Source of the DNA: Escherichia coli | GTDB taxonomy: Bacteria > Pseudomonadota > Gammaproteobacteria > Enterobacterales > Enterobacteriaceae | Direction: 5' to 3' (one strand) | Length of the DNA: 64,000 bases | Assembly (NCBI RefSeq): GCF_016026235.1 | Contig: NZ_CP065613.1 | In this document: positions 1,813-10,727 of the stretch, in pieces | Numbering within the stretch: the first letter of the stretch is position 1 | Layout: each line of letters opens with the position of its first letter | The notes under the pieces: generated by a model | What the model saw: the letters and a program-made list of their open reading frames with translations, nothing else | The model's database searches: none | What the model was told of the DNA's origin: nothing | Position numbers and translations under genes: made by a program

Positions 1813-4653
1813 TCAGCTGTAGAGCAGTTCGTAGATATAAAAATATTCTGCGTCCGATAAACGGATAGCGTAAGCCTCTTCAATCGGCAAAAAGGAGGAT
1901 TTGATGACGCTAAAGGCACGAGCGTCCAGATCAAGCCGGTTTTCTAGCGCCATCTGTAACGGTTTGCGGTTAATCACGATACGCTCGACCATGCAGCAGC
2001 AGTGGATCAGAAAACGTAGTGTCACCTGGCGGCTCGGTTTCAGGGAGAGCGTGTTGGTTAAGTAGTTCAGAACATCCTCGATCTCTTTCAGAATTCGCTG
2101 CGGGTTGAGCACCGAAATATGGTTGATGATGCTCTCCATGGTCAGCGCGCTGATAAAGCGCATGGCGCTGCGCTCCATCTCCAGTCGGCGCTCGCTGCTT
2201 GAGAGATCCGGCGTCAGCAGGCTGAGCACCAGCTCCGGCCCTTGCTCGGAAAACAGTTCCTCCAGCGAGATAAACGGTATATCCGGCAGTCCCGGCTGGA
2301 AGGTGCCGACGATCCCTGCCAGCCGTTCACTGGCATTAAGCGCCTGCTGAATACGCTCCAGGCTGCGCACCTCGTTATAGTCGAGAATCACCATACGCGT
2401 GTCCTGCGACATCAGCTCGCCAAAGCTCTCCTCCAGCACCTTTTTGATCTTTTCCGCCGTCCCCATTCCGGTTATACATGAGATAACCAGCACTTTGCCA
2501 CCGCTCTCTTGCTGCGGCGTGCAGAGCCGACAAGGGATATTTTTACTCTGCATAAGCACAGCCAATTGCGATAGATCGCCAGTTTCGTAGCTTAAATCCA
2601 GCCCAACCTCCAGCAGGCTGGTCAGAGTGATATTTGGCAACAACAGAACGTCAATCTGGAACAGCTTGCTGATGGTGCTGCCAAAATGGACCAGCGATCC
2701 GATATCCACCATCAGTATCAGCCGCTGCCAGCACCGGTCCTGAATCATCCGGGTCAGGGTTTCCAGGGTGTCATGCACCGACTGCTCAAATGGCATATCA
2801 ATTGCGTAGAACAGATCGCGCTCCAGCACCCGGTTCACATATTGCGCCTGGCTCGTTGCGGTGGTCGCACCGTGAGCGATTAGAATCACGCCGCAATCCG
2901 GGCTGGTGTCGATGCGCTGGCGGTAGTGGCGACACTCTTTCAGGAACAGGCACAGCCAGACCACCTCCGTCGCCGGGCACTGAATATGCAACAACTCATT
3001 GATTTTGCGGCACAGAAGCGTGGCATTGTCATACTCATCTTTACAGCGATCCAGAATCAGGCTGGATGAATAGAGTTGAGGTATAAGCCCTCGCCGCACA
3101 TAGCCAATCAGCGCAAGAAAGTGTTTACGTAACGGGTTCGCCAGGTTTTCTGGCAATGTAAATCCTAATACCTGCTCCACGTAACCGATCAGCAGCGTCA
3201 CACGCTCCTCAATTTGATCGCCATAGCGCGGTGGATGCGCCGCACTATGGCGGCTATAAAGACCATATTCAAAAATCGAACTGAGTTTGTTTTTCAGGAT
3301 AGCCAGCGTTTCTGCGGGCGGCACGTTACTGTTGCGCAGATTGACATATTCACGAGTCAGGAAACTGTAAAACAGGTCGCTCTCTTCTATTTCCGCGCTG
3401 GTCGCCAACGAATTTTTTAACGCGGGCAACGTACGCGCATCCACGTTCAGACGATCTTTACCGCCAAACAACGCATCGACCAGCAGACGCTGCTCTGGCG
3501 TGGTATTAAACGACATCTCCGCCAGTCGTTTATCTAACTCTAGCGTATCATTACGCTCGGTCATTCCCGACGCCCACGCCTGCGCGCACAAGAACTGAAT
3601 ATCACTTTTAAGCTGGCCGATATTGCCTTCCAGGGGTTTACTTAACAACCAATGCAAGAGCGTTTTATCAAGGCTTATGGTACGTTCAATTTTACGACTT
3701 TCACGCTGAAAAAAGCTTACAATCAATTCGAGCTGCTCCTCGACCGAACGCTGGCGAATACCCGGTAAGTCAATACATACCTGGATACGCCGCTGGAAGG
3801 TACGCAATAGTGCCGAGTTGACCGACTCTGTAGTGGCGCAAATAAGGCGCACCGAAATTGAATATGTTGGCCCACTTGAACCAAGTGGGCGGTATTCACC
3901 TTTATCGAGAATAGAAAAGAGCTTCTCTTGTCCTTCGTACGGGAGGCGATGCACTTCATCCAGAAGTAAATAACCTCCGTCAGCTTGCTCCACCAATCCC
4001 GTTTTATTCTCACTTGCCCCGGTAAATGCCCCCTTATGGTGACCAAACAGATGTGAGGAAAGCAACTCCGGATTATGAGCATATTCGGCACAGTTAAAGT
4101 AAACCAACGGAGGTGGCGAACCTATGGTGTGCTTGCAAGCGAAGCAATGCATTAACTCAGCAAAGAATGTTTTGCCAACACCAGATGCACCGGTTAACAG
4201 CACATGTAGTCCGTGGGGATAAAGCACCGCTGCGCGGCCTTTTTCTACCGCATCACGGAGACTACGGTCGTATCCGATAAGTCCGGAAAACGGATCATCA
4301 TCTGTATATTTTTCTTTCTTTGGCAATAAACTAGCCACTGAATGAACTATGCATTCGCAATCATCCAGTTTTCGATTAATGAGCAATTCTAGTGCGTGAC
4401 GATGTAGAAAAAAAACAGGACGTCCCTGACTTTTTACCACCAGGCCTTCATTCCATAATTGATTAAGATCTTTACTAACCGAGTTGCGTGCCAGCCCAAG
4501 GTTAAAACCAATCGCCTCAGCAGTAAATGCTTTCTCCTTCGCTAAATCAGACAGTTCCAGCCCATACGTCAGCCGCTCCAGCTCCTTGTGAATAACATCA
4601 ATCCGTCTCATTTCTTTACCGCTTAAAAAACAATAGTTGTTCAGAACATACAC
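1813..4653 (-). CDS. sigma-54-dependent LevR-type transcriptional activator with PTS regulation domains (true start may be the internal Met near 4611)
   Basis: 946-aa ORF; N-terminal HTH, AAA+ sigma54-interaction domain (GASGVGKTFFAELMH Walker A, LFGH-like motif), long C-terminal PRD/EIIA-like region; adjacent sigma-54 promoter and PTS genes. Confidence 0.75.
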   Translation of the reverse strand: MYVLNNYCFLSGKEMRRIDVIHKELERLTYGLELSDLAKEKAFTAEAIGFNLGLARNSVSKDLNQLWNEGLVVKSQGRPVFFLHRHALELLINRKLDDCECIVHSVASLLPKKEKYTDDDPFSGLIGYDRSLRDAVEKGRAAVLYPHGLHVLLTGASGVGKTFFAELMHCFACKHTIGSPPPLVYFNCAEYAHNPELLSSHLFGHHKGAFTGASENKTGLVEQADGGYLLLDEVHRLPYEGQEKLFSILDKGEYRPLGSSGPTYSISVRLICATTESVNSALLRTFQRRIQVCIDLPGIRQRSVEEQLELIVSFFQRESRKIERTISLDKTLLHWLLSKPLEGNIGQLKSDIQFLCAQAWASGMTERNDTLELDKRLAEMSFNTTPEQRLLVDALFGGKDRLNVDARTLPALKNSLATSAEIEESDLFYSFLTREYVNLRNSNVPPAETLAILKNKLSSIFEYGLYSRHSAAHPPRYGDQIEERVTLLIGYVEQVLGFTLPENLANPLRKHFLALIGYVRRGLIPQLYSSSLILDRCKDEYDNATLLCRKINELLHIQCPATEVVWLCLFLKECRHYRQRIDTSPDCGVILIAHGATTATSQAQYVNRVLERDLFYAIDMPFEQSVHDTLETLTRMIQDRCWQRLILMVDIGSLVHFGSTISKLFQIDVLLLPNITLTSLLEVGLDLSYETGDLSQLAVLMQSKNIPCRLCTPQQESGGKVLVISCITGMGTAEKIKKVLEESFGELMSQDTRMVILDYNEVRSLERIQQALNASERLAGIVGTFQPGLPDIPFISLEELFSEQGPELVLSLLTPDLSSSERRLEMERSAMRFISALTMESIINHISVLNPQRILKEIEDVLNYLTNTLSLKPSRQVTLRFLIHCCCMVERIVINRKPLQMALENRLDLDARAFSVIKSSFLPIEEAYAIRLSDAEYFYIYELLYS

Positions 4654-4869
4654 TATTTGTAAACGTAAGAATGAGAACTATCGGGAAGAATTAATGTTCC
4701 TTGTGGCAATCTGGTTTCTGAATATTCGTGTTTTAAATATTACTTATGGTCTGAAACAACCAGGCAGGTGAACAGAGCTAAGAAAAAGTAGCGTAGAAAT
4801 ATAAAAACATATATCGCACTGATGAATGTTTCCCGGCATGACTATGCACACCGGGAAATATTTAGTAAA

Positions 4870-5790
4870 TTACTCGCCCTTTTTCGCCGCCTGAATATAC
4901 AGCATCTCCAGCGCCAGCGTCGCCGCAGCCAGAGCGGTGATTTCCGACTGATCATATGCCGGAGCCACTTCCACTACGTCCATCCCAACGATGTTGAGAT
5001 CTTTCAGGCCGCGTACCAGTTTAATAGCGCGATCGGAGGTCAGGCCGCCAATCACTGGCGTACCGGTGCCTGGTGCAAAAGCAGGATCCAGGCAGTCGAT
5101 ATCAAAGGTCAGGTAAACCGGCATATCACCCACAATCTGTTTCACCTGGGCGATAACGTCATCCACGCTGCGATCGTTCACCTGGCAGGCGTCCAGTACG
5201 GTAAAGCCGTTGTCTTTATCAAACTCGGTACGAATACCAATCTGCACGGAATGATTCGGGTCGATCAGACCTTCTTTCGGCGCGGTATAGAACATGGTGC
5301 CGTGGTCAAATTCACAACCGTTCGCGTAGGTATCGGTGTGGGCGTCGAAGTGTACCAGCGCCATTTTGCCGAAATGCTTAGCATGAGCACGCAGCAGCGG
5401 CAGCGTAACAAAGTGGTCACCACCGAAAGAGAGCATACGCTTACCGGCAGCCAGCAACTTCTCGGCGTGTGCCTGCAGTTTTTCGCTCATCTCACGGGCA
5501 TCGCCGAAGGCATATACCAGATCACCGCAGTCCACGACGTTCAGGCGCTCACGCATGTCGAAATTCCACGGGAAGCGGTTGTGTTCCCAGGCCAGATTCG
5601 TCGAAACCTGACGGATCGCTGCCGGACCGTGACGACCACCGGCACGGCCAGAGGTGGCCATGTCGAACGGCACGCCGGTGATCACCCAGTCGGCATCGCT
5701 GTCATACGGCTGGAAGTTCATCGGCAGGCGTAAAAAACCAAAGGCGTTGGAAACCAGTGAGTTATCGTATTGATGACCTAAGGTGCTCAT
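4870..5790 (-). CDS. speB: agmatinase
   Basis: Translation [26 protein letters not shown]... matches E. coli SpeB over full 306 aa; ORF-track N-terminal extension to 5874 rejected. Confidence 0.9.
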
Positions 5791-5924
5791 GGATGGACTC
5801 CTATTACAAAGTCGATATAAAAAACCCTTCCGCGTCGTTAGGCCCGACGAGGAAGGGTTGGATTTGCGAAACACAAGTTTGTGCTAATTATCGCCTTAAA
5901 TGGGCGAGGCATCAAGCGAGGTTG

Positions 5925-6656
5925 CTATTTCCGACACGGTGGCGGCGCATAGCCATTGTTATCTGCCGGAAAGGCTTGTCCAGAGCACGGCGGCAGCGCG
6001 TTTTGCGCTGGGCCTTGTAATTCAAAGGCGGCAAAGCCGATTACCCCGGTATTACGCACATCGCCTTGCGCCGAATTGGCTGCGTAGGAATCAGCAACGT
6101 TGGCGAACTGAAAAGCCGCTTCGGTATGTTTATCTTTGCGGAATCCTTTAATCGCTAACGAATCTCCGGCATTCACAATATAGCCGTTGTTATTCAGCGA
6201 ACCTTGCTTGCCGTTCAGCACATCCATGCCATCAACCGTAGCAACGATCTCGTAGTTGGTGTTACGACTGTAATTACGGACATATAATTGATAATTCATT
6301 CCGACTCTGGCATGGACAATATAGCGTGGTTCATTATTGGATGAATCATAAACACGCGTAATAGGTAGAGAATTAAAATTACCATCGCGAATAGCATATT
6401 CCAGTTCGTTAATACGAATGCTATAAACGCGGTCATAGCCGGAAGGAACATTAGTCGAATAACTAATAACGATCATCTCTGCAGGATCGCGCCAGGCTCG
6501 TTCAGCAGATACGCCCTGGACCGATGAGTGCACATCCCCACCCCAGGCGGTGCCGACATTGCCCGATGCACTGCTATTATACTGCGCATTACTGGAACAA
6601 CCGGCCAGCAGCACGATTAATGCCACCAACGCGCTACGTACTTTCCATTTTTTCAT
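5925..6656 (-). CDS. hypothetical lipoprotein (signal peptide with LAGC lipobox)
   Basis: 243-aa ORF, N-terminus MKKWKVRSALVALIVLLAGCSS; sits between speB and speA where I recall only a short intergenic gap in K-12. Confidence 0.5.
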   Translation of the reverse strand: MKKWKVRSALVALIVLLAGCSSNAQYNSSASGNVGTAWGGDVHSSVQGVSAERAWRDPAEMIVISYSTNVPSGYDRVYSIRINELEYAIRDGNFNSLPITRVYDSSNNEPRYIVHARVGMNYQLYVRNYSRNTNYEIVATVDGMDVLNGKQGSLNNNGYIVNAGDSLAIKGFRKDKHTEAAFQFANVADSYAANSAQGDVRNTGVIGFAAFELQGPAQNALPPCSGQAFPADNNGYAPPPCRK

Positions 6657-6801
6657 AACCGTTCCCTCTGCATTTAATTAATGCAGCGATTGTAGGGAGA
6701 TTATTTAATAAGAAAAGCAGCCAGATTATTTTTAAGAATATATAAAAAGAAAGCGGGCCGATTTACGTAAATAAATCGACCCGCCAGCGGAATAATCTTA
6801 A

Positions 6802-8778
6802 TTATTCATCTTCAAGATAAGTATAACCGTACAAACCTGCCTCGAACTCTTCAAGGAACTGTTGTTGCAGTTCAGCATCAAGATCGGTTTTCTTCACTTG
6901 ATCGCGGAACTGGGTTAACAGCGTTTTCGGATCGAGCTGTACATATTGCAGCATGTCCGCCACGGTATCGCCTTCGTCAGACAGTTCTACTTCTACGCTA
7001 CCGTCAGGGAACACGAACACGTCAACCGCTTCGGTATCACCGAACAGGTTGTGCATATTGCCAAGGATCTCCTGATATGCGCCGACCATAAAGAAACCGA
7101 GCATCGGCGGATTCTCTGGATCGTACTCCGGCATTGGCATTGTCGTGGCAATACCATCACCATCAATATAGTGGTCGATAGCACCGTCAGAGTCACAGGT
7201 AATATCCAGCAGCACAGCGCGGCGTTCCGGCACTTGATCCAGCCCTTCCAGCGGCAGAACCGGGAACAACTGGTCGATCCCCCACGCATCCGGCATCGAC
7301 TGGAACAGCGAGAAGTTGACGTACATTTTGTCTGCCATACGTTCCTGCAGCTCGTCGATAATCGGACGATGAGCACGGTTTTGCGGATCCAGTTGCTTCT
7401 GCACTTCATGGCACATGCTCAGATAGAGTTGTTCTGCCCATGCACGTTCTTGCAGGCTAAAGGTGCCGGAAGAGTAGCCGATATGAATGTCGTGCAGATC
7501 CATCTGGCTGTCGTGTAACCATTCACGCAAAGAACGGCGAGTTCCCGGTTCGTGCATCTCCTGCCAGGTTTCCCACATGCTTTGCAGCGCGCGCGGCGCA
7601 TCTTCTGCGGGCGCGGTCGGCACCGTATATTCGTTACGTTCCACGCCGATGATATTCGATACCAGCACGGTGTGATGCGCAGTTACCGCACGACCCGATT
7701 CGGTGATTACCGTCGGATGCGGCAGACCATTTTCTTCACACGCATCACCAATCGCCCAGATGATGTTGTTGGCGTATTCATTGAGGCCATAGTTTACGGA
7801 GCAGTCAGACTGCGAACGGGTGCCTTCATAGTCCACGCCCAGACCGCCGCCGACGTCGAAGCACTGAATATTGACGCCCAGCTTGTGCAGTTCCACATAG
7901 AAACGCGCGGATTCACGAACGCCTGTCGCGATATCGCGAATATTCGCCATCTGCGAACCGAGGTGGAAGTGCAGTAGTTGCAGGCTGTCGAGACGCCCGG
8001 CTTCACGCAGGGTTTCAACCAGTTGCAGTACCTGAGTCGCAGCCAGGCCGAACTTCGATTTTTCCCCGCCGGAGGACTGCCATTTACCCGAGCCCTGCGA
8101 GGCCAGACGTGCACGCACGCCCAGACGAGGAACGACATTCAGACGTTCTGCTTCATCCAGCACAATGGCGATTTCTGACATCTTCTCAATGACCAGATAG
8201 ACCTTGTGCCCCATCTTCTCGCCAATTAATGCCAGGCGGATATATTCGCGGTCTTTATAACCGTTGCAGACGATGACGCTACGGGTCATGCCAGCATGTG
8301 CCAGCACCGCCATCAACTCTGCTTTGGAACCGGCTTCCAGACCCAGCGGTTCGCCCGAATGAATCAGGGACTCGATCACGCGGCGGTGCTGGTTAACTTT
8401 GATCGGATAAACAAGGAAGTAATCGCCGTTATAGCCGTAGGATTCCCTCGCACGTTTGAACGCGGCGTTAATGGAACGCAAACGGTGCTGCAGGATCTGT
8501 GGGAAACAGAACAGTGCAGGCAGACGCTGACCCTGTGCTTCACGAGTTTTCACTAACTGCGCGAGATCGACGCGAGCTTCCGGGACGTCCGGGTCTGGGC
8601 ACACGCTGATGTGGCCCAGCTCGTTAACGTCATAGTAGTTATTGCCCCACCAGGCAATATTGTAAGTACGCAGCATCTTGCTGGCTTCCTGGGAGCTCAT
8701 TGCAACCTCCTGCATGGAGCGTAGTACACCGTGTTCGCCCGCTGACGAAGGCAAACCCATAGACATGTCGTCAGACAT
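6802..8778 (-). CDS. speA: biosynthetic arginine decarboxylase
   Basis: 658-aa product starting [25 protein letters not shown]..., matches E. coli SpeA. Confidence 0.9.
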
Positions 8779-8786
8779 AGCGAACC

Positions 8787-8918
8787 TCAAATTATTTTAT
8801 TAAGTGTAAAACAGTTAACGACTATCGCAGCCTGGAACTGCGATAACAACCCATAAGCACATGGATTTTCCAGCAGTGTATGCTGACGCTCCGACTGCGC
8901 AACCGGTTTCTTTTTCAT
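8787..8918 (-). CDS. yqgB: small protein YqgB (43 aa)
   Basis: Manual reverse-complement translation gives [43 protein letters not shown]; immediately upstream of speA on same strand. Confidence 0.75.
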
Positions 8919-9053
8919 AACATTATTAAGCACATAACCGAACGTAAGTGTGACAGTTCGGCGAAACCACGAGAAAACTCTTGTTTTTACAAGAGCGCCC
9001 TTGTTCAGTCCTCAGTAACTGTAACCAGCTCTTGAATCCTGAGAAGCGCCGAG

Positions 9054-9269
9054 ATGGGTATAACATCGGCAGGTATGCAAAGCAGAGATGCAGAGTGCGG
9101 GGAACGAATCTTCACCAGAACGGTGAGACAGGTTAAGCAGCAGACAACGGTTCATTATTTCGTATCACCTCCACGGCCGCCTGTTAAGACGAACCCACAA
9201 GCCAAAACTCTGATTTCAACCCGGCTGGAAGTGGCAACACGAAAGAAACGTCGTGTGCTTTTTATTTAA
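9054..9269 (+). CDS. yqgC: small ORF, possibly yqgC (71 aa)
   Basis: 71-aa ORF in the position and of the length of K-12 yqgC; no functional motif. Confidence 0.35.
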
Positions 9270-9532
9270 GCCGCGCGCCGCGTTTTATACCCCACAATGG
9301 CAGAAAATTGCAAAAGATAAATACGCAGAATGCCGGCATTGTCAGGAAAAATTTCCAGCCACGTTTTTAACAGAATGAGACACGATTCAAAAAAAAGTGG
9401 AAATCGGGTGAAGAATTGACCTAAAATAGCCATCCAGATGTTAATCCATCCATACCGATTAACACTCAGACTGCCAGTGTTTTTAACTTGCAGAGTCGTG
9501 GTAGGATCCGCTACCACAGAAAATCCACACAA
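9266..9532 (-). CDS. yqgD: small ORF, possibly yqgD
   Basis: 88-aa ORF upstream of metK at the position of K-12 yqgD; weak. Confidence 0.3.
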
Positions 9533-9572
9533 CAGTTTGAGCTAACCAAATTCTCTTTAGGTGATATTAAAT

Positions 9573-10727
9573 ATGGCAAAACACCTTTTTACGTCCGAGT
9601 CCGTCTCTGAAGGGCATCCTGACAAAATTGCTGACCAAATCTCTGATGCCGTTTTAGACGCGATCCTCGAACAGGATCCGAAAGCACGCGTTGCTTGCGA
9701 AACCTACGTAAAAACCGGCATGGTTTTAGTTGGCGGCGAAATCACCACCAGCGCCTGGGTAGACATCGAAGAGATCACCCGTAACACCGTTCGCGAAATT
9801 GGCTATGTGCATTCCGACATGGGCTTTGACGCTAACTCCTGTGCGGTTCTGAGCGCTATCGGCAAACAGTCTCCTGACATCAACCAGGGCGTTGACCGTG
9901 CCGATCCGCTGGAACAGGGCGCGGGTGACCAGGGTCTGATGTTTGGCTACGCAACTAATGAAACCGACGTGCTGATGCCAGCACCTATCACCTATGCACA
10001 CCGTCTGGTACAGCGTCAGGCTGAAGTGCGTAAAAACGGCACTCTGCCGTGGCTGCGCCCGGACGCGAAAAGCCAGGTGACTTTCCAGTATGACGACGGC
10101 AAAATCGTTGGTATTGATGCTGTCGTGCTTTCCACTCAGCACTCTGAAGAGATCGACCAGAAATCGCTGCAAGAAGCGGTAATGGAAGAGATCATCAAGC
10201 CAATTCTGCCCGCTGAATGGCTGACTTCTGCCACCAAATTCTTCATCAACCCGACCGGTCGTTTTGTTATCGGTGGCCCGATGGGTGACTGCGGTCTGAC
10301 TGGTCGTAAAATTATCGTTGATACCTACGGCGGCATGGCACGTCACGGTGGCGGAGCATTCTCTGGTAAAGATCCATCAAAAGTGGACCGTTCCGCAGCC
10401 TACGCAGCACGTTATGTCGCGAAAAACATCGTTGCTGCTGGCCTGGCCGATCGTTGTGAAATTCAGGTTTCCTACGCAATCGGCGTGGCTGAACCGACCT
10501 CCATCATGGTAGAAACTTTCGGTACTGAGAAAGTGCCTTCTGAACAACTGACTCTGCTGGTACGTGAGTTCTTCGACCTGCGCCCATACGGTCTGATTCA
10601 GATGCTGGATCTGCTGCACCCGATCTACAAAGAAACCGCAGCATACGGTCACTTTGGTCGTGAACATTTCCCGTGGGAAAAAACCGACAAAGCGCAGCTG
10701 CTGCGCGATGCTGCCGGTCTGAAGTAA
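9573..10727 (+). CDS. metK: S-adenosylmethionine synthetase
   Basis: 384-aa product [29 protein letters not shown]... [19 protein letters not shown] motifs; ORF-track start trimmed by 4 codons. Confidence 0.95.

Follow-up and report, generated by a model that had tools for sequence, protein, structure and literature searches.

Escherichia coli K-12 makes putrescine via SpeA and SpeB, and in K-12 MG1655 the corresponding genes, speB (3082877-3083797) and speA (3083935-3085911), are separated by a spacer of 137 bp inside which nothing is annotated; the spacer of BL21 is the same. Lipoproteins of E. coli are sorted by the residue at position +2, where Asp is the signal for retention in the inner membrane and a residue other than Asp predicts transfer to the outer membrane. 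In a stretch of 64,000 nucleotides of an E. coli contig (NZ_CP065613.1; the whole stretch is referred to as the window), the spacer between speB and speA comprises 1011 bp and encodes a predicted lipoprotein of 243 amino acids, labelled X throughout this study. We assign a probability of roughly 0.8 to the explanation that X is an ancestral, separately transcribed lipoprotein gene that keeps a constant position between speA and speB and has been lost in K-12 by deletion.

A gene for a predicted lipoprotein occupies the spacer between speB and speA

The list of open reading frames (ORFs) for positions 3500-10500 of the window places three genes on the minus strand: speB at 4870-5790 (ATG at 5788-5790, stop at 4870), X at 5925-6656, and speA at 6802-8778. 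The boundaries of speB and speA match the RefSeq annotation of a genome that is 99.9% identical, and positions 5791-6801 represent the complete spacer from the start of speB to the stop of speA. The ORF of X starts with ATG and reads MKKWKVRSALVALIVLLAGC... / MKKWKVRSALVALIVLLAGCSS...; a Shine-Dalgarno sequence, GAGGGAA (6662-6668), precedes the start codon by 5 nt. A previous sequence-only reading of this region had described speA and speB as nearly adjacent in K-12 and had noted about 1 kb with a same-strand gene for a 243-residue predicted lipoprotein in the window. Both statements were borne out, and the synteny comparison of the speA-speB interval that it had proposed showed that K-12 MG1655 lacks the gene.

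X was intact in every orthologue examined. Compared to two other Escherichia lineages, the ratio of nonsynonymous to synonymous substitution rates (dN/dS) of X was 0.064 and 0.073 at an unsaturated dS of 0.28-0.31, while in the same comparison speA displayed a dN/dS of 0.005-0.009 and speB was without any amino-acid change. With a dN of 0.018-0.023 for X versus 0.001-0.003 for speA, the X protein evolves at roughly ten times the rate of its neighbours. The content of guanine and cytosine (GC) is 48.6% in X and 54-56% in speA/speB, and the corresponding values at third codon positions (GC3) are 46.7% and 61-64%. Homologues of X reaching down to 33% identity occur across the Proteobacteria. Since the ORF is accompanied by a ribosome-binding site and a lipobox, displays a dN/dS of 0.06-0.07 and is annotated as a coding sequence in RefSeq, we concluded that X is a real gene under clear purifying selection and not a chance ORF.

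X is ancestral and K-12 carries a deletion

The gene order speA-X-speB was found in two cryptic Escherichia lineages and in E. whittamii, and likewise in nine non-Escherichia genera, among them Citrobacter (three species), Klebsiella (two species), Kluyvera, Enterobacter (one species), Intestinirhabdus, Phytobacter, Kosakonia, and Entomohabitans; across all taxa with this order the X orthologues are 53-96% identical. In E. albertii, X is followed by speB on a contig whose end falls inside X. In Salmonella, speA is followed by X and then by a sugar-acid island, and sequences of E. fergusonii belong to the same 90% cluster as X. Because other Escherichia species and nine further enterobacterial genera share the order speA-X-speB, we concluded that X is ancestral and that K-12 carries a deletion, with no sign of an insertion in the lineage of the window. 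The sequence-only reading had left the choice between these two events undecided; the order shared by the outgroups upholds the deletion and speaks against the insertion. As judged from alignments to MG1655 and BL21, K-12-type E. coli lack a segment at positions ~5921-6801, which covers X, its putative promoter and the predicted terminator of speA, in line with the difference of 874 bp between the spacers of 1011 and 137 bp.

The opposite scenario, a horizontal insertion of X into the lineage of the window with K-12 representing the original state, might be supported by the GC and GC3 values of X, which lie below those of speA and speB, and by the short spacer of K-12, which cannot be derived from the window sequence by a clean deletion alone. 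However, orthologues reside at this very site in every sampled species of Escherichia as well as in the nine other genera, and what remains in K-12 aligns with a conserved promoter that is located downstream of X in all genera. Furthermore, no mobility or integrase genes, tRNA, attachment site or flanking direct repeats were detected when these were looked for at the borders of X. The insertion scenario is contradicted by this evidence, and we consider it extremely improbable. A mobile or island origin of X was rejected for the same reasons, the absence of mobility features and the presence of the gene at the same site in the outgroups. No real plasmid copies of X were identified; the matches in plasmid collections were chromosome-sized records or chromosomal fragments labelled as plasmids.

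A further copy of X, 63% identical and without flanking speA or speB, occurs on two contigs that bear the names Citrobacter sp. 18056 and Chryseobacterium sp. 18061 (L021 and L022). The match statistics of the two contigs are identical. This suggests a second locus and, probably, an assembly that is contaminated or mislabelled.

X represents the majority state in E. coli

Using positions 5700-6900 of the window as a query, we performed a megablast search against 5426 complete E. coli genomes. The full 1.2 kb including X was present in 3550 genomes, and the others matched in the flanks only. X is, hence, the majority state in E. coli, and to call it an 'extra' gene, as had been done from the sequence, was misleading for a gene that is both ancestral and this widespread. 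In the reciprocal search of the same genomes with the BL21 junction as a query, the K-12-type junction was detected in 1863 genomes, with 98-100% identity in all K-12-type rows listed, and the X-carrying genomes consistently displayed about 2 differences over the 62 adjoining bases of speA. Given the near-invariance of the junction and these consistent differences in speA, the K-12 state appears to represent one allele that originated from a single deletion event.

About a dozen of the 5426 genomes belonged to neither class. One of these is E. coli 23CRST038 (L092), in which an IS1 element is inserted in X with a rearrangement, so that actS is now located beside the truncated gene. In addition, a truncated X allele of 174 amino acids (P0025) is common in read-derived assemblies, with 448 member sequences. 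The IS1 insertion and the 174-residue allele represent independent disruptions of X within E. coli.

In RefSeq genomes, the gene is placed between speA and speB and its product is named 'hypothetical protein', 'lipoprotein' or 'membrane protein'. The exact X protein occurs on at least 1000 contigs, and its cluster at 90% identity comprises 4753 member sequences. X has, thus, been annotated in thousands of genomes before and constitutes an ordinary strain difference. A search of the literature on the lipoprotein gene at speA/speB or on its locus tags yielded nothing about X; STM3085, a putative Salmonella orthologue of X, is mentioned once in an off-target list without a product.

The region on the other side of speB displays a second presence/absence difference. 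A gene at 1813-4653 on the minus strand, which encodes a sigma-54-type regulator of 946 amino acids with phosphotransferase system (PTS) regulation domains and is named dagR in RefSeq, adjoins speB in the window. In K-12, BL21 and cattle strain 108, its place is occupied by loiP and tktA.

Predicted transcription signals flank X and are partly retained in K-12

A strong intrinsic terminator for speA was predicted at 6742-6785 (also delimited as 6752-6785) on the minus strand, both by a terminator scan and as an inverted repeat. It consists of a stem of 15 pairs, a loop of 4 nt and a T-run. In an alignment of the speA-X spacer from 11 genera the hairpin is conserved; it is absent from the spacer of K-12 and BL21. 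A putative -10 hexamer for X, TACAAT, is located at 6689-6694 (minus strand), 32 nt upstream of the ATG, and is not accompanied by a good -35 hexamer; the TA..T positions of the -10 hexamer do not vary in the same alignment. The X leader further contains a near-palindrome at 6668-6686, CTGCATTTAATTAATGCAG, between the putative -10 hexamer and the Shine-Dalgarno sequence. This element is specific for Escherichia and does not occur in Salmonella, Citrobacter or Klebsiella.

Downstream of X, a promoter scan identified a sigma-70-type promoter, TTGATG-N17-GATAAT, at 5887-5915 on the minus strand (-35 hexamer at 5910-5915, -10 hexamer at 5887-5892), which sits 10 nt downstream of the X stop codon. 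In an alignment of 12 sequences spanning the region from the X stop to the speB start, CTTGA(A/T)-N17-GATAAT is common to all genera and K-12, with invariant or nearly invariant hexamers and spacing; the K-12 version is TTGAAT-N17-GATAAT. This element probably represents the proximal speB promoter. It is followed by a hairpin with a U-run at 5817-5859 (minus strand; detected as an inverted repeat with a stem of 14 pairs), which directly precedes the ribosome-binding site of speB. The predicted RNA fold has an energy of -33.5 kcal/mol (z = -4.5). The hairpin occurs in 10 of the 12 aligned sequences, including that of K-12, the exceptions being Phytobacter and Kosakonia, and in Klebsiella spallanzanii one C-G pair is replaced by a compensatory U-A pair. 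A search of the region against Rfam yielded no family match. The hairpin is a predicted terminator for X transcripts, and the succession of a promoter and a hairpin with a U-run in front of the speB ribosome-binding site suggests a putative transcription attenuator in the speB leader.

In K-12, the 60 bp beyond the shared hairpin are unlike the window sequence in a pairwise comparison. As a leftover of the deleted DNA, these 60 bp were not significant when compared to the whole region, and the comparison with the adjacent 61 nt alone was marginal, with 42 of 2000 shuffles reaching the score. Since they align to the invariant TTGA-N17-GATAAT in the 12-sequence alignment, the 60 bp are identified as the conserved segment that carries the predicted speB promoter. 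The stop codon of speA in K-12 is located 14 nt upstream of the -35 hexamer.

These signals bear on the possibility that X works together with the polyamine pathway, either by binding or sensing agmatine or putrescine in the envelope or by modulating SpeA. Such a role would explain the position of X between speA and speB, an order that is conserved throughout the Enterobacteriaceae examined; in addition, the predicted transcripts of X end at the hairpin preceding speB, and SpeA is listed as periplasmic in a proteome table of O157:H7. However, as judged from the sequence, X would reside in its own terminator-bounded unit and not be a member of a speAB operon, and its position may persist merely because X lies between two conserved genes. 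Outside the Enterobacteriaceae, X never adjoins speA or speB but is found inside the his operon in Comamonadaceae and beside sbcCD in Acinetobacter. Moreover, K-12 produces putrescine in the absence of X. We therefore regard a role in polyamine metabolism as improbable.

X is predicted to be an outer-membrane lipoprotein with a beta-rich core

Residues 1-20 of X (6597-6656, minus strand) were read from the sequence as a signal peptide with a lipobox. The signal peptide consists of the n-region MKKWKVR, the h-region SALVALIVLL and the lipobox L-A-G-C (LLAGC) with Cys20, and Ser occupies position +2. Of 41 aligned homologues, 40 share Cys20 and none has Asp at +2. The protein accordingly displays what is expected of a bacterial lipoprotein, i.e., a charged n-region, a hydrophobic h-region and a lipobox with a conserved Cys, and the Asp signal for inner-membrane retention is missing, as expected for sorting to the outer membrane. 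X is, thus, predicted to be a lipidated lipoprotein of the outer membrane that faces the periplasm.

A model built with AlphaFold2 on the alignment of 41 sequences reached a mean predicted local distance difference test score (pLDDT) of 82.7 and a predicted template modelling score (pTM) of 0.74. The model comprises a disordered tether (residues 18-30), a beta-rich globular core of about 14 strands (residues ~34-213; 6018-6557, minus strand) and a C-terminal tail (residues 214-243; 5928-6017, minus strand). The core is all-beta, and the blocks between residues 40 and 210 mostly have a pLDDT above 90. Motifs of the core that occur family-wide are GTxWGE, YE(I/V)VATVDGLDVLNG, GY, I-GFRK, AAFRF, SYAAN, and N-GVIG-A-F. 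The positions conserved in the family are mainly Gly and aromatic residues, together with Asp142, Arg173, Asn128, Asn202 and Tyr191.

The tail has a pLDDT of ~46-54 and carries the motif FP(A/G)D...YAPPP as well as Cys224 and Cys241. Phe229, Pro230, Ala237 and Pro240 are present in 39-40 of the 41 homologues, and Pro239 is also nearly invariant. The two cysteines are present in enterobacteria; among the 41 homologues, 15 sequences have both and 22 have neither, and three of the four exceptions carry another close pair of cysteines. Because the tail cysteines occur as pairs, a disulfide was predicted, and the pattern fits a periplasmic disulfide between Cys224 and Cys241 in enterobacteria.

X belongs to a large family without a Pfam, NCBIfam or solved-structure match

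A scan of 1.84 billion representative proteins with a hidden Markov model (HMM) identified 4190 family clusters at E <= 1e-3 and 3261 at E <= 1e-10, counted at 50% identity. The named members belong to the Proteobacteria and occur in Enterobacteriaceae, Providencia, Gilliamella, Neisseria, Kingella, Acinetobacter and Psychrobacter as well as in Comamonadaceae, Ralstonia, Azoarcus, Paracoccus and Pseudorhodobacter. The family further includes metagenomic members that are rich in GC and carry long linkers of low complexity. The best-scoring members in two profile searches were all single-domain proteins, of 236-297 amino acids in the broader, second search; domain fusions sought in this search were not found, and its proteins were without a Pfam match.

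A function for X had been stated as unknown from the sequence, and the database searches agree with this. No Pfam match was obtained for X, 40 homologues and 10 distant members. A search of NCBIfam returned only matches at the level of the signal peptide, far below the cut-off, searches of PADLOC and PHROGs gave no match, and a profile search of the PDB sequences yielded 0 matches at E <= 10. The AlphaFold2 model weakly resembles TRAF/MATH-like or Ig-like sandwiches.

Homologues also occur in two jumbo phages, Rhizobium phage RHph_I1_18 (L097:2989-3714) and Sinorhizobium phage Phosso (L098:3001-3852). In these proteins, the strand segment 'GxGxG...S-V..V-F' is located after the core instead of before it, a circularly permuted order that the metagenomic member P0264 shares. 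The phage copies have lost Glu136, Asp145 and Lys174.

Since X lacks a residue set of catalytic type and its fold is weakly similar to TRAF/MATH- and Ig-like domains, a binding role appears more plausible than an enzymatic one. The conservation of Gly and aromatic residues, the residues lost in the phage copies and the nearest folds, which are peptide- or ligand-binding sandwiches, hint in the same direction. We tentatively propose, with low confidence, that X is not an enzyme but a binding module whose target would be a periplasmic protein, a peptide or an envelope ligand. The stronger notion that the family represents a truly new beta-sandwich domain with an undescribed function, e.g., of a periplasmic ligand-binding or protective class, appears doubtful, but deserves to be taken seriously.

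Gene neighbourhoods outside the Enterobacteriaceae reveal no common partner

In Variovorax and Acidovorax, X is located inside the histidine operon in the order hisD-X-Y-hisC (L008:6842-7216, L011:6844-7233), and other Comamonadaceae apparently share this placement. The small secreted protein Y matches the Pfam Rap1a immunity family (E = 4e-4, 21 bits), but with a score below the cut-off of 27.7 bits. In Acinetobacter, X resides between a gene similar to yggS and sbcCD. When the neighbours within 3 kb were clustered for ~60 loci that represent 33 genera or taxon groups, none was shared beyond the family level, and three more distant members had no consistent partner gene. Linkage of X to speA or speB did not occur in the neighbourhoods examined outside the Enterobacteriaceae. 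As no neighbours are shared, we concluded that the genomic context offers no functional partner.

The same neighbourhoods were considered with regard to another possibility, namely that X is an orphan periplasmic immunity protein directed against an envelope toxin of competitors, such as a type VI secretion effector. A stand-alone gene for a lipoprotein predicted to be directed to the periplasm, the rapid evolution of its product relative to the neighbouring proteins and the polymorphic presence within E. coli would all be consistent with this role, as would the small secreted protein with a weak Rap1a match adjoining X in Comamonadaceae. However, no effector gene was found beside X in any of the ~60 neighbourhoods, and X does not match an immunity family. 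We consider an immunity function unlikely, if marginally less so than a role in the polyamine pathway.

Discussion

In the explanation that we favour, X would be an ancestral chromosomal gene of the Enterobacteriaceae that has retained its position between speA and speB. Bounded upstream by the speA terminator and equipped with a weak promoter and a good ribosome-binding site of its own, it would form a separate transcription unit, with transcripts that end at the hairpin of the speB leader. The product would be exported by the Sec system as a prolipoprotein, lipidated at Cys20 and relieved of its signal peptide; with Ser instead of Asp at position +2, it would then be delivered to the outer membrane by the Lol system. 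There, a flexible tether of ~13 residues would hold a beta-sandwich of 180 residues in the periplasm, and the tail with the FP...APPP motif would be closed by a disulfide in enterobacteria. Under laboratory conditions, X would not be required. A single deletion of ~0.88 kb would have eliminated the gene from K-12, BL21 and roughly one third of E. coli, and the same deletion would also have removed the speA terminator and brought the speA stop codon to 14 nt upstream of the speB promoter.

Several points weigh against this explanation. Lipidation and localisation are predicted, as are the promoter and the disulfide. The promoter segment of K-12 differs by ~40% outside the hexamers, compared to ~1% in the flanks (MG1655, L096:2299-2435, versus positions 5867-5924 of the window), and a simple recent deletion fails to explain this divergence. 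The cryptic clades, at a dS of ~0.3, hardly differ from the window in the same segment; the K-12 allele of the segment may have been imported or may have changed rapidly after the deletion. Finally, the homologues in the two rhizobial phages are without a signal peptide, and the domain is thus not confined to the periplasm.

If the deletion account is true, 'speAB' as arranged in K-12 represents a derived state, and in most E. coli and the related genera speA has its own predicted terminator while speB has a conserved candidate promoter and a leader hairpin downstream of X. For the window itself this matters little, since the gene is already annotated and the difference to K-12 is a plain lineage-specific deletion. 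X is a member of a large uncharacterised family without a Pfam model, to which genetics based on K-12 could never assign a function. Should the family indeed represent a new domain, the polymorphism within E. coli, with K-12 lacking X and most pathogenic and wild strains possessing it, would provide a ready genetic system.

Among the known systems, X can be compared to the outer-membrane lipoproteins that are processed and sorted by Lgt, LspA, Lnt and Lol. It likewise possesses a signal peptide, a lipobox with its Cys, a residue other than Asp at +2, a flexible tether and a globular domain, and is predicted to belong to this group; however, its globular domain matches no characterised lipoprotein family. 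With orphan periplasmic immunity proteins of the Rap1a/Tai4 type, X shares its small size, its predicted export and a gene located away from a toxin gene, but it differs from these proteins by its all-beta fold, the lack of an immunity-family match and the absence of effector linkage. With regard to the fold, X is modelled as a beta-sandwich that is only weakly similar to the TRAF/MATH-like and Ig-like binding modules, as represented by the MATH domain of SPOP, the TRAF-like domain of USP7, TRAF1 and Siah1.
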